Origin: Escherichia phage S127 BCL3
Sequence record: OQ626344
Length of the DNA stretch: 64,000 nt
Direction: 5' to 3' (one strand)
Part shown: one piece after another, positions 35,745 to 41,224 of the stretch
How the letters are laid out: each line of letters starts with the position of its first letter
Numbering within the stretch: position 1 is the first letter of the stretch
Translations under genes and position numbers: made by a program
The notes under the pieces: generated by a model
The model's input: the letters and a program-made list of their open reading frames with translations, nothing else
What the model was told of the DNA's origin: nothing
Database searches by the model: none

Positions 35745-37823
35745 TTAAAAAGGTGTTTCGTCGTCTTCAAAACCCGGAACGTGGTTAGAGGACGGATCAT
35801 CATACTGAAGGTCTTCCTGTGTGTCAACAGGGTTAACAGTAGGAGTTACAACCTTATCAGCCACAACCTTGCCAACAGGTGTTTCTACAACTGCATGCTC
35901 CTGATCCTCAAACATAGCCTGAGGTCTCCAAACAACCTCCCCACCTTCCCCGTCTGTAAACATCTGCATTTCTTTGTCCCAGTACCAGTTGCTGGCATCA
36001 TGGAACTTGCCTGTGTGGGGATCCATAACTAGAGTGTCCGCAATACCTAAGGTTTTTGCTGGGCGGTTTTTAAGACCTACCAGTCGGACACGTCCACGGG
36101 AACGATCCACCATCTCCTCTGCCTCTACCCCGACAACCACCCAGCTAAGTTGCTCCAATCCGGCACTACCACGAAGGTTCTCTTTTCGTACAGGGTACCA
36201 GAAAGGTAACGGATTTCCATCCTTATCCTTCGGAGGTACAATCTCTGTGCGCTTCAGGTGAGCAATCACCAAGATAAACACATTAAACTGCTTACAGAAC
36301 GCGGCTAGTTGAGTCATAGCCATGTCAAGCTCTTTACGCTCATCCTTAACATTAAGCCCTGAAATCACCATAGACAAGTGATCCAGCACAATGTAACGGC
36401 AGTGATACAGGCACACCATTTGTTTAAGCTTAGTGATCAGCTCATCTACAGGGATGGAGCCGAAATGCTTGAACACTTTGATTTTTCCGGCCTTGGCCCA
36501 AGATTGATGAATCTCAGCGTGCTCCTGATCGGTCAGGAACTGACTGGGGTCTTCAACAAACTCTTTAACATCAAACCCCAGCTGGTTAGCGTACAGAGAG
36601 TTGATTGCTTCCTCAGGATCCTCTTCAAGGTGAATCAGGCACAGGCGATCATCCTCTTCATAATCATCAGCTTTAGGGCATGTTGGATCCATCAAGTATC
36701 TTGCAATGCAATGTTCCAGCTTCTTGGCTACAGTTGTTTTACCACCGCCAGACGGGCCTGTCAGCATCATCAAGGTGCCTTTGTGGAGTCCTTTCAGCAT
36801 CTTCTGCAGTTTAGGGAACTCTGCACTAATATCCACGCCATTGGAAGTCTTCTTACGAAGAGATTCAATGGAGAAGTCTTCTAAATCAGATACAGCATCA
36901 GGCACATATTTGACTGGGTGACGGAACATGTTGACAATATCTTCCAGCTTTTTAGCCTTCAGCATGTCACGAATATCTTTTACACCATCAGGGTCGTTTA
37001 CCTCACCTGGGTATTCCACGTGGTAAACGTTGTCAGCCATCAAAAATGCTGCGATATTATGCGTAGCTTCAACACCTTTGATAACGTGTTTTTGCTTCTC
37101 TACCTCGTTGGCTGCATCGTTGTCCATTGCAAGGACTACTGTTCCGTAGCTACGGATAAATTTCTCATTGTTCGCAAAAGTGTCTACGGCGTTTGCACAC
37201 CCGCAGTTAATTCCGACAAAAGGCAGGCATGGTTTTCCTGCCAGATCACCGCCGTTGATAACTGCATCAATCCCGTCCTGGACTTCTTTAGCCCACTGCT
37301 TCACCTTCGCCGGGGCTTTAGCATTGGTGAGAATTCCTTTTACTTGCACCTGATATGCAGCCTGCCACGCTGCAATAACATCTCCTTCCCCCTCACAAAC
37401 GTTAATCTGCTTGCGGTTGTTGGAGGATGCACACAGCTTTTGACCAAACATCTGGGAGTTGGCCTTTACTATGCCGACAACCGAGAAATGGCCCCTTTGC
37501 TCTTTAGGGATTGTCCAGTCACGCTTTTTAAAGCCAGATAGATTACCGTAGCGGTCATAATACGGAAAGTAGGTGGCAGTAACAGTTACGCCATCCTCTT
37601 GGGATAACGATGATCGTACACCAAAATATTGTGCAGCCATCAGTCCAATATTTTGTTGTGGAACAGGGACAATTTTAGTATTTTCTAAAACAGTCTCTAC
37701 AGTTTCAACTTCTTTTTCATCACGATAGTCTCGTTTCACACTTCCCCCACTTTTATACTTAGTTGCTTTCGGGTTTGGCTCACCGAAACGGTTGTATGCA
37801 GATGCCATGAATTTACTGCCCAT
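35745..37823 (-). CDS. bifunctional primase-helicase (Toprim primase plus DnaB-like helicase; T7 gp4-like)
   Basis: 692 aa; Toprim VCEGEGD and LAMDNDAANE; Walker A GPSGGGKTT; AAGGAGAAG RBS. Confidence 0.8.
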   Translation of the reverse strand: MGSKFMASAYNRFGEPNPKATKYKSGGSVKRDYRDEKEVETVETVLENTKIVPVPQQNIGLMAAQYFGVRSSLSQEDGVTVTATYFPYYDRYGNLSGFKKRDWTIPKEQRGHFSVVGIVKANSQMFGQKLCASSNNRKQINVCEGEGDVIAAWQAAYQVQVKGILTNAKAPAKVKQWAKEVQDGIDAVINGGDLAGKPCLPFVGINCGCANAVDTFANNEKFIRSYGTVVLAMDNDAANEVEKQKHVIKGVEATHNIAAFLMADNVYHVEYPGEVNDPDGVKDIRDMLKAKKLEDIVNMFRHPVKYVPDAVSDLEDFSIESLRKKTSNGVDISAEFPKLQKMLKGLHKGTLMMLTGPSGGGKTTVAKKLEHCIARYLMDPTCPKADDYEEDDRLCLIHLEEDPEEAINSLYANQLGFDVKEFVEDPSQFLTDQEHAEIHQSWAKAGKIKVFKHFGSIPVDELITKLKQMVCLYHCRYIVLDHLSMVISGLNVKDERKELDMAMTQLAAFCKQFNVFILVIAHLKRTEIVPPKDKDGNPLPFWYPVRKENLRGSAGLEQLSWVVVGVEAEEMVDRSRGRVRLVGLKNRPAKTLGIADTLVMDPHTGKFHDASNWYWDKEMQMFTDGEGGEVVWRPQAMFEDQEHAVVETPVGKVVADKVVTPTVNPVDTQEDLQYDDPSSNHVPGFEDDETPF

Positions 37824-38577
37824 CAGTTCTTCTCCTTACTGCAGGCTCGTTTGCTAAGAATACAGCTCTTGCCCAGCCACGTGGTGTAAGGCTTCGAATC
37901 ATCTTCGTCCTTGCACTCTTTCCACCTAGCTTAGCGTGTTGCATGGAATAACCACTAACCACATCAACTATTTGCGGGACAGGTTTTGTGGCGGGGATTA
38001 TAAATCCATTTCCTATCCAACCGCAAGTTATTTTTGGGTAGGCATCACGTGGAGCTATAAATTCAGGAAACCATGGGTTTACATCATCCTCTGGTAAATA
38101 CCCACCATAATCCGAAGGATGAAAACGGTAATCAGGTTTTCGCCACAGTGTTGACATAACTCCTACAGGGTTCTCTACATGCCACGGGCAATCGTAAATC
38201 TCTCCCAACTCTTCTGCAACCCGAGCATCTTTCACAGCATTAATTTGGATCAGAGGATCCTTAGCCAGCTTTTTCTTAAAGTGTGCAGCTCCGGATACTG
38301 CTAAATGCGTGCACGGAGGAAATGCAAGAATAAAGTCTGGAGCTGGATACATGCAAAAAGTTTCTTGAGGGAACCATGGATCAATCCAATAATCCACATA
38401 GTGAATGTTAGGATGATCGGTTATCACCTCTGCATAACTGCCGTGGTCAGCACCTTCTGCATTAAAGCACAGGCACAGGTACCCAGCTTTTGCCCAGTCA
38501 ATAACTGCACCACCAGACCCGTCAAATAGACTCCACACAACACCTTTGTGGTAGTGTTCTTTGTAGATAAATTTCAA
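37813..38577 (-). CDS. putative DNA (cytosine-5) methyltransferase-like protein, atypical
   Basis: TTG start with AGGAGA RBS (ORF-track GTG start lies inside the upstream terminator); motif I FDGSGG, motif IV PPC (Q replaced by T), motif VI-like HVENPVG. Confidence 0.5.
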   Translation of the reverse strand: MKFIYKEHYHKGVVWSLFDGSGGAVIDWAKAGYLCLCFNAEGADHGSYAEVITDHPNIHYVDYWIDPWFPQETFCMYPAPDFILAFPPCTHLAVSGAAHFKKKLAKDPLIQINAVKDARVAEELGEIYDCPWHVENPVGVMSTLWRKPDYRFHPSDYGGYLPEDDVNPWFPEFIAPRDAYPKITCGWIGNGFIIPATKPVPQIVDVVSGYSMQHAKLGGKSARTKMIRSLTPRGWARAVFLANEPAVRRRTDGQ

Positions 38578-38593
38578 TTTGCTGTCTCCTAAT

Positions 38594-39824: not shown

Positions 39825-39880
39825 TCGGTGTTCTCCTTATCTTGTGTGAAGAGTAGACCTCTCCTTCGATATTTTAAATA

Positions 39881-41224
39881 TTACTCTAAATCTTCTTCTG
39901 AGTCAAGCTTATCTTTCACAACTAAGTTCTGGGCAAGTTTGTAATAACGAAAGCCCCCACCACCTTGCCAGTTTACAGATTTAGAAATACCACTTTGATC
40001 TTCACCATCGATCACTTTTTGCAAGCGTGGAATAATATGGGTATGACAATGATCTCCTAGCTCAACCGAGATCCAACGTCTTTTCATCTTGTGAGCTGCA
40101 GCAGCAGTAGTTCCCGAACCGCCGAATGAGTCCAATACTAAATCTCCTTCTCGCGTACACATTTCTAAAATCCGCTTCAAAAGCGCTTCAGGTTTTTTTC
40201 CATTTTTGAAACTAACGCCCCCTTCATTTGCTATTCCATTCCAACTAATGTCAGTCCAAACATCAGTTATTAGTTCAGCAGGCTGCATCTCACCGTCAAT
40301 TTCCAAAAGCCTATTGGAATAAAAGACCATTTGCCTACCATTTGCGATATAAAAGCCTTCGACATCCTCATTTGGATGTACATAAACCTTATCCCTATCT
40401 TTCTTTGACTTCTCGATAGTTTCTTTTCTCTTTATTTTGGCACCACCGCCAATTGCAACGGATTGAAATACACGTTCTGCATTATCAATTGCAAATTGTG
40501 CTAATTCATCATCAAATGTATCAGGCAGTTTTTTCTTGGCTTCTTTTGTATCTTTATAGCCATTGGCCTTTGCAAACGCCTCGGCAATACCGCACCACGT
40601 CCAACTTTTATAATGGTCATCTGGGTTTAATAGATATTTGTTATATCCCGTATCATACTCTTTAGGTATATAGATTTTGTTAAGTGGTTTCTTGGTACGA
40701 TCTTTTGCATATACAAGCAAAAAGTTTGCTGTGGAGAAAACTGTAGTTCCTGTTGCCTTAAAGCCTGAAGGGCAATTTGTAGTCATCGATATGGTATTTA
40801 ACTGATTTGCACGACCAAAAATCTCGTCCATCAAGACTTTTAAATAAGCCATTTCGCAGTCATCTAAGTGAACGAATATCACTCCATCATCGCTTAGCAG
40901 ATTACGAATTATTTCTAATCTGTCCCGCATTAAGCCCAGCCAAATGGAGTGCTCCAGGCTATCATCGTAGTGCTCAAAATCCCTTCCGGTATTGAATGGT
41001 GGGTCTATGTAAACACACTTCACTTTGCCTGCATACTCTTGCTCTAGTGCCTTCAATGCCAGTAAGTTATCGCCAAAAATCAGTTTATTATCAAAAATAT
41101 CGTTTTCGGTCACCTTTTTACTGGCGTGATAAGTCTTGCTCGAATCTTCTAACAAAATGTGAGGCTCTAGCTTTTTGCGCTCGTTCTTACCTATCCAGGT
41201 AAGTTCTAATTTGGTTTTACTCAT
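39881..41224 (-). CDS. DNA N6-adenine/N4-cytosine methyltransferase (beta-class motif order)
   Basis: 447 aa; motif IV DPPF N-terminal (VYIDPPFNTG), motif I C-terminal (LDSFGGSGTT); AAGGAGAG RBS. Confidence 0.8.
   Translation of the reverse strand: MSKTKLELTWIGKNERKKLEPHILLEDSSKTYHASKKVTENDIFDNKLIFGDNLLALKALEQEYAGKVKCVYIDPPFNTGRDFEHYDDSLEHSIWLGLMRDRLEIIRNLLSDDGVIFVHLDDCEMAYLKVLMDEIFGRANQLNTISMTTNCPSGFKATGTTVFSTANFLLVYAKDRTKKPLNKIYIPKEYDTGYNKYLLNPDDHYKSWTWCGIAEAFAKANGYKDTKEAKKKLPDTFDDELAQFAIDNAERVFQSVAIGGGAKIKRKETIEKSKKDRDKVYVHPNEDVEGFYIANGRQMVFYSNRLLEIDGEMQPAELITDVWTDISWNGIANEGGVSFKNGKKPEALLKRILEMCTREGDLVLDSFGGSGTTAAAAHKMKRRWISVELGDHCHTHIIPRLQKVIDGEDQSGISKSVNWQGGGGFRYYKLAQNLVVKDKLDSEEDLE

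Follow-up and report, generated by a model that had tools for sequence, protein, structure and literature searches.

In the 64,000-nucleotide stretch of DNA analysed here (hereafter the window), from Escherichia phage S127 BCL3 (sequence record OQ626344), two genes on the minus strand encode methyltransferase-like proteins: a long one of 447 residues (39881..41224) and a short one of 254 residues (37813..38577). Judged from their sequences, both are likely to be orphan DNA methyltransferases of an rV5-like phage that most likely mark phage DNA in advance, the long enzyme being related to the Mod subunits of type III restriction systems and the short one being a cytosine-5 (C5) methyltransferase resembling DNMT3. 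Sequence, fold, homology and genomic context were obtained in this work, whereas enzymatic activity, target sites and a protective role are what we infer. Both genes are of known kinds, one a restriction-derived orphan methyltransferase and the other a member of a phage Dcm-like family, and many GenBank records already list both as methyltransferases; they thus provide a testable prediction and no new concept. It is well known that phages carry orphan methyltransferases of restriction-system origin.

Over the 5 kb around the two genes, the nucleotide sequence is 98% identical to that of Escherichia phages B9-1 and vB_EcoM-ECP26; for FV3 and other rV5-like phages of the genus Vequintavirus, the identity is 93-95%. 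By nucleotide identity, the source of the window is thus a Vequintavirus, an rV5-like myophage of E. coli. Our searches for nuclease, Res and cmoA genes covered the 64-kb window of a genome of roughly 136 kb.

A type III Mod-like methyltransferase and its E. coli counterpart

The long protein matches the PF01555 (N6_N4_Mtase) profile over residues 68-394 (E 1.4e-43, 149.8 bits against a cut-off of 26.7) and the PADLOC MTase_III model PDLC03636 over model positions 2-445 of 575 (E 1.3e-202). It comprises the N-terminal segment, the methyltransferase core and the inserted target-recognition domain of a Mod subunit. In its translation, the catalytic motif IV, DPPF (residues 74-77; 40994..41005, minus strand), aligns with DPPY of the EcoP15I and H. 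pylori Mods, and the S-adenosylmethionine (SAM)-binding motif I, FGGSG (residues 367-371; 40112..40126, minus strand), lines up with the same motif in type III Mods, CcrM and M.MboIIA. DPPF upstream of FGGSG is the motif order of beta-class methyltransferases, and here our analysis agrees with an initial annotation of the stretch, made from the letters alone, which had placed the enzyme in that class. Among solved structures, its nearest sequence relatives are type III Mods, namely those of H. pylori (6k0w), EcoP15I (4zcf) and Mbo45V. Together, the DPPF motif, the type III Mod relatives and the N6-adenine enzymes at the top of the structural matches favour the N6 of adenine over the N4 of cytosine as the probable target.

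The initial annotation had also seen no restriction endonuclease accompanying the two genes, and neither did we. With the Res partner of the closest bacterial Mod as query, tblastn returned no homologue in the window (best E 2.0), and the open reading frames (ORFs) neighbouring the methyltransferase genes gave no Pfam, PADLOC, nuclease or defence matches. Since no Res homologue is encoded in the window and the neighbours of the long gene are small ORFs of unknown function and a Dda-like helicase, the long gene is an orphan and not part of a type III system. The structural paradigm of type III enzymes, EcoP15I Mod (PDB 4ZCF), is ~21% identical to the phage enzyme and has a different recognition domain, hence the site of the phage enzyme is almost certainly not CAGCAG.

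A relative with much higher identity exists in E. coli. A search of 5.8 billion proteins retrieved an E. coli 'site-specific DNA-methyltransferase' of 567 residues (WP_024226319, cluster P0271) that shares 95% amino acid identity with the phage protein over 443 residues; at the nucleotide level, the long gene is 94.4% identical to the E. coli chromosomal gene over 1330 of its 1344 nt. Of 5426 complete E. coli genomes, 25 (0.46%) contain the matching gene, in each case on the chromosome. Directly after it, in six of the six contexts, follows a gene for a ResIII-domain protein of 910-912 residues (WP_024226320), and PADLOC classifies the pair as MTase_III (PDLC03636; E 7e-285, full length) and REase_III (PDLC03648; E 9e-191). 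DPPF, FGGSG and the central recognition region (96% identity) are common to the E. coli Mod and the phage enzyme, but the latter lacks the last ~124 residues, which form the C-terminal domain (CTD). The genes also differ in their surroundings, as the E. coli mod gene lies in a defence island, whereas the phage gene has no adjacent res and belongs to the replication module. Full-length Mod forms of 560-600 residues are spread over distant bacteria at 56-77% identity.

The E. coli island adjoins tRNA-Sec and also encodes a MAD1-like helix-turn-helix protein, a DrmD-like SNF2 helicase, AbiD and AbiU/AIPR. Its upstream genes (L009:4115-13464; also L003-L008) are the same in every context examined. 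The MAD1-like protein scores 81.3 bits against an NCBIfam cut-off of 80, while the DrmD-like helicase (964 residues) falls below the DISARM cut-off, and the island may be a composite defence system. The annotation of one island gene as the MADS protein MAD1 led no further; the Mod-Res pair itself classifies as type III.

Comparison of the phage and E. coli genes yielded a synonymous divergence (dS) of 0.21 and a nonsynonymous divergence (dN) of 0.024, that is a dN/dS of 0.11, and the copies of two phages differ with a dN/dS of 0.16; by these ratios, purifying selection acts on the gene in the phage. Within nt 601-1050, which form part of the central region, only 8 nucleotides differ between phage and E. 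coli, against 68 in the other 880 nt, and the protein identity of this segment is 96.4%. Since the recognition region is nearly unchanged, the phage enzyme is expected to have the same target specificity as the E. coli Mod. The E. coli Mod stands no further from each phage allele (92.5-96% identity) than the phage alleles do from one another (91-94.5%). Furthermore, a truncated Mod of metagenomic origin (P0275, 444 residues) is a mosaic whose centre is 95-96% identical to the phage/E. coli type and whose flanks are 70-75% identical, which points to modular recombination having shuffled the gene. Most likely, the gene moved from a bacterium into a phage and lost its 3' end.

The truncation itself is uniform. 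At a threshold of at least 90% identity, the truncated gene is found in 86 phage records, all of them Vequintavirus-like; the phage forms all measure 441-447 residues and share the same end point, and none of 50,697 phage genome records encodes the missing CTD. In a weak but plausible alignment, GFRYYKLAP of the E. coli Mod lies opposite GFKVYQLMP of EcoP15I (about residues 506-514), and on this weak alignment the end of the phage protein corresponds to EcoP15I residue ~520-525. In EcoP15I Mod, the methyltransferase domain spans residues 62-262 and 390-516 and the CTD residues 539-644; the protein dimerises via its N-terminal domain (NTD) and methyltransferase domains, a stand-alone methyltransferase being possible, and the CTD of one protomer (ModA) contacts Res (PMC4490356). 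The phage protein would thus end after the methyltransferase domain and before the CTD and, by analogy, would keep the parts for dimerising, site recognition and methylation without the part that docks Res. In the literature, we found no paper that points out a type III Mod resident in E. coli with 95% identity to the phage enzyme, and none describing the clean loss of the would-be Res-docking domain.

A protein of this shape could also act in a different way, as a dominant-negative decoy that forms heterodimers with the nearly identical host Mod and, for want of the domain that contacts Res, blocks assembly of the active Mod2Res complex, methylation being secondary or absent. Such a role would fit a truncation placed at the boundary of the methyltransferase domain and the CTD and retained at the same place in all phage copies, with the CTD in no phage, and it would fit the arrangement in EcoP15I, where NTD and methyltransferase domains make the dimer and the CTD of ModA reaches Res. 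A pure decoy, however, would have no need of DPPF, FGGSG and the whole recognition region, all of which are under purifying selection (dN/dS 0.11), and a protein made after infection would not protect the incoming genome. We hence regard a decoy as quite improbable and favour an enzyme that methylates.

A short Dcm-like cytosine-5 methyltransferase

The short gene, like the long one, lies at the coordinates given in the initial annotation, on the minus strand, and the start chosen there also proved right: a TTG at 38577, with a Shine-Dalgarno sequence AGGAGA (38585..38590, minus strand), read from the sequence, 7 nt upstream. The nearest database cluster likewise comprises proteins of 254 residues. 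A longer ORF of 264 residues starting from a GTG at 38607 was rejected, since this GTG lies inside a terminator-like hairpin.

The C5-like motifs reported in the initial annotation are all seen in the translation. Profile searches line up FDGSGG, the SAM-binding motif I (residues 18-23; 38509..38526, minus strand), with motif I of M.HaeIII and DNMT3B. Motif IV, FPPCT (residues 86-90; 38308..38322, minus strand), contains the putative catalytic Cys89, which is a Cys in 69 of 71 relatives, and motif VI, ENPV (residues 135-138; 38164..38175, minus strand), contains Glu135, with Glu in 69 and Pro in 70 of the 71. They are followed by a basic segment resembling motif VIII, RDAYPKIT (38026..38049, minus strand), with K182, and by a conserved C-terminal motif, IRSLTPRGWARAV (37861..37899, minus strand), which resembles canonical motif IX (in E. 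coli Dcm, RRLTPRECARLM) and lies at the start of the last helix. Of 71 diverse members, 69-71 keep the PPC Cys, the ENP Glu, K182, Y180, W187, R228, P232 and G234, with C89, E135 and K182 conserved in 69.

The protein belongs to a large family. It matches phrog_757 (E 6.4e-87, residues 10-261 of the 264-residue ORF), while PADLOC gave no match for it; among its relatives, 19 of 31 match PF00145 weakly (E<=1; best 1.3e-06). The family counts 4177 homologues of 225-260 residues and 2059 representative clusters at E<=0.001, and it occurs in 1503 phage records, mostly of Escherichia, Klebsiella and Salmonella phages. A blastn search with the C5 gene against the 5426 E. coli genomes returned no match. 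Two members have further domains: in P0262 (563 residues), a D12-class (Dam-type) N6-adenine methyltransferase domain is fused on, and P0265 carries an HNH_2 domain.

The AlphaFold2 (AF2) model of the short protein is confident (pLDDT 90, pTM 0.89) and shows a cytosine-5 methyltransferase fold, with the catalytic domains of DNMT3A/B ranking first in Foldseek (E 1e-5). At the level of sequence, similarity to solved enzymes is low, as DNMT3A/B, M.HhaI and M.HaeIII (PF00145) are 12-19% identical to the window protein. Sequence and profile searches of the PDB gave borderline matches (E 0.3-1) confined to motifs I-IV, which are in register with M.HaeIII and DNMT3A/B, and when M.HhaI, DNMT3A and E. 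coli Dcm were compared with the short-family profile by hhalign, only motifs I-IV or motif IV aligned. In the AF2 model, a 23-residue insert precedes the strand formed by residues 184-189, about 40 residues lie between this strand and the C-terminal motif, and the last helix spans residues 233-251. The initial annotation had found no obvious target-recognition domain, which is broadly right: the modelled recognition region is very small and in this resembles that of DNMT3, unlike those of bacterial type II enzymes. Where DNMT3A/B and bacterial C5 methyltransferases have PCQ or PCN, the window protein has PCT(H/D); PCT is the norm of the whole short family and not an oddity of this gene.

One member of this family has been tested. 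Phage K42, a KarlJaspers strain whose genome is 95.4% identical to that of KarlJaspers, encodes a 'Dcm-like C5 cytosine methyltransferase' in a gene of 711 bp (bioRxiv 10.1101/2023.08.16.553469). K42 Dcm makes 5-methylcytosine (5mC) on the msDNA of retron Ec86, as detected by liquid chromatography coupled to mass spectrometry (LC-MS), and the wild-type enzyme triggers this retron (Eco1) (bioRxiv 10.1101/2023.08.16.553469; echoed in PMC12916289), while a C82A/E128A/K175A/K176A mutant yields no 5mC (bioRxiv 10.1101/2023.08.16.553469). The KarlJaspers Dcm (236 residues, likewise from a 711-bp gene) is 54% identical over 235 residues to the window protein; K42 and KarlJaspers are Drexlerviridae, and the window phage is a myovirus of a different family. 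The proteins share FDGSG, FPPCT, ENPV and IRSLTPRG, and the C-terminal motif is the same but for one residue (W/F at position 235). C82, E128 and K175 of K42 Dcm correspond to C89, E135 and K182 of the window protein, and K176 is replaced by Ile183. By this sequence relationship, the short protein is a member of a phage 'Dcm-like' short C5 family that includes a tested maker of 5mC.

The initial annotation had considered that the short protein might be a base-modifying enzyme of different chemistry. It might, for instance, transfer a non-methyl group, such as carboxymethyl from host carboxy-SAM (Cx-SAM) in the manner of CmoX, or act on RNA. CmoX (PDB 8YF3) is a phage DNA cytosine C5-carboxymethyltransferase, and such enzymes are defined by SPPC, an Arg in place of Asn304 of M.HhaI and a phage cmoA gene (PMC12783734). 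The window protein has FPPC instead of SPPC, and the window contains neither a cmoA homologue nor a ligase partner. An Arg could not be assigned to the position of M.HhaI Asn304 and CmoX Arg350: one register points to L230 (at the helix start) and another to R233 or R237 (by the look of the motif), neither of them established. No invariant Arg can be placed there, and position 237 varies among short-family relatives between R, K, L, Q and I. Moreover, K42 Dcm produces 5mC on DNA in E. coli, which has CmoA and thus Cx-SAM, its KarlJaspers orthologue shares the C-terminal motif as described, and the nearest structural neighbours are the DNA methyltransferases DNMT3A/B. With Cys and ENP in 69 of 71 relatives and PCT as the family norm, the proposal of a different chemistry finds no support, and we consider it very unlikely; a DNA cytosine-5 methyltransferase is the favoured reading.

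As to the target site, the authors of the K42 study assume CCWGG, from the name of the enzyme and from msDNA mutants (bioRxiv 10.1101/2023.08.16.553469). Profile alignment revealed no similarity between the recognition domains of the short family and E. coli Dcm, for which reason we do not adopt CCWGG as the site of the short enzyme. Site frequencies in the window are uninformative on targets: CCWGG occurs 146 times (observed/expected 0.93), and none of the sites tested is strongly avoided. Conservation within the short family is highest in the small recognition segment, which argues for one specificity across the whole family.

Genomic setting of the two genes

Both methyltransferase genes lie within the replication module, in an arrangement that runs from DNA polymerase and primase/helicase through the short methyltransferase, three small ORFs and the long methyltransferase to a further small ORF, a Dda/PIF1-like helicase, rIIB and rIIA. 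The stop of the short gene overlaps the start codon of the primase/helicase gene at 37823. Upstream of the short gene, a GC-rich terminator-like hairpin with a T-run (38599..38624, minus strand; 11-pair stem with 7 GC pairs) separates it from the preceding ORF, and further upstream lies a sigma-70-like promoter match, TTGACA-17-TACAAT (38645..38673, minus strand; 11 of 12 positions), identified by consensus match only. Reading along 38599..38673 on the minus strand, a near-consensus promoter is thus followed by the hairpin and then by the Shine-Dalgarno sequence and TTG of the C5 gene, a layout that may be attenuator-like.

The three small ORFs between the methyltransferase genes (38629..39824, minus strand; 160, 131 and 101 residues) are of unknown function and have strong matches to function-unknown PHROGs only. 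The 101-residue ORF (39519..39824, minus strand), which is acidic, additionally shows a weak match to the C-terminal part of phrog_1573 ('DNA methyltransferase', E 2.9e-06). Two adjacent ORFs with matches to phage HNH-endonuclease families, 50893..51942 (phrog_3118, E 3e-111) and 51955..53436 (phrog_1314, E 7e-123), are situated on the plus strand about 10 kb from the methyltransferase genes, on the opposite strand from them, and have no link to them.

A suspected frameshift in the DNA polymerase gene was rejected, as the window polymerase (32909..35686, minus strand) is intact with 925 residues. The polymerase of phage NHEP1 (1248 residues) contains an in-frame insert of 324 residues (672-995) that is absent from the window polymerase and looks like an intein or similar mobile insert. 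Dozens of GenBank records named 'Campylobacter phage' (MG065644, MG065655, MG065658 and others; host C. jejuni) carry both methyltransferase genes at ~93-96% identity and look like mislabelled or contaminant assemblies. The true Campylobacter phages CP8 and CPt10 reach only ~40% identity to the Mod-like gene.

Probable role and implications

We consider pre-emptive self-methylation of progeny DNA to be the most likely role of both enzymes. They would modify replicating phage DNA, and packaged genomes would reach the next cell already marked. By analogy with EcoP15I, the long enzyme would dimerise via its N-terminal and methyltransferase domains, one protomer reading an asymmetric site and the other methylating adenine N6 on one strand. 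Because of its 95% identity to the E. coli Mod, and 96% across the recognition region, it would write the mark of the E. coli system and shield the phage against this system and related ones; because the CTD, which in EcoP15I contacts Res, is missing, it would methylate without forming a restriction complex. In the short enzyme, a flipped-out cytosine would be attacked at C6 by Cys89 and protonated at N3 by Glu135, with SAM as the methyl donor and 5-methylcytosine as the product. When the initial annotation called both enzymes probably anti-restriction, it did so for the pair as a whole; our data lend this specific support for the long enzyme, as it is nearly identical to the Mod subunit of a genuine Mod-Res pair in E. 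coli, whereas for the short enzyme the case is generic.

Several observations weigh against this reading. In BASEL, Vequintavirinae were exceptionally susceptible to the tested restriction-modification systems, type III included (PMC8594841); any protection would therefore be narrow and limited to particular sites, without general effect. The matching system is a rarity in E. coli (0.46% of complete genomes), which is at odds with a gene kept in essentially all Vequintaviruses. Regarding the short protein, neither Pfam nor NCBIfam gave a match (PF00145 none at E<=0.01), and the canonical motif X (GN-V) could not be placed by hhalign or HMMER. At position 39, the Vequintavirus clade carries Asn, whereas 56 of 71 relatives carry the Asp that usually serves as the ribose-binding acid in motif II, and Ile183 occupies the position at which K42 Dcm has a second catalytic-site Lys.

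Alternatively, the methyltransferases may serve the biology of the phage itself and not the evasion of defence, for example as a packaging mark, in the timing of gene expression, or in the discrimination of phage from host DNA by phage nucleases. Dam methylation at the pac site of phage P1 is a precedent for such a phage-internal role. It would be in line with the conservation of both genes across the genus, with their location among helicase, primase and polymerase genes, the C5 gene heading the replication module and overlapping the primase/helicase start codon, and with the lack of general restriction-modification resistance in Vequintavirinae. Yet the 95% identity to the Mod of a restriction system has the look of a captured antidote, to which the near-identical recognition region also points; furthermore, no methylation-dependent phage function is known for the group, and the window shows no link between sites and packaging. 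A phage-internal role is thus unlikely in our view.

Two further readings go beyond these. In the first, the long enzyme would be a dual-action Mod that both writes the host mark and poisons Mod2Res by heterodimerising with the 95%-identical host Mod without being able to dock Res. In the second, the Dcm-like enzyme would be an Achilles heel that retron Ec86 (Eco1) detects, and this might be part of the reason why Vequintavirinae are reported not to plate on E. coli B. We assign these readings a low probability and retain pre-emptive self-methylation as the preferred explanation. Our literature search found no methylome report for rV5-like phages.

In summary, a widespread and therapy-relevant phage genus appears to have taken the methylase of a host restriction system, seemingly trimmed to its protecting part. 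Phages of this kind are predicted to enter E. coli strains that carry the WP_024226319/WP_024226320 type III pair without coming to harm. Since the second methylase belongs to a family that makes 5mC and triggers retron Eco1, it is also predicted to be a liability for host range wherever strains carry the retron, E. coli B being one example.

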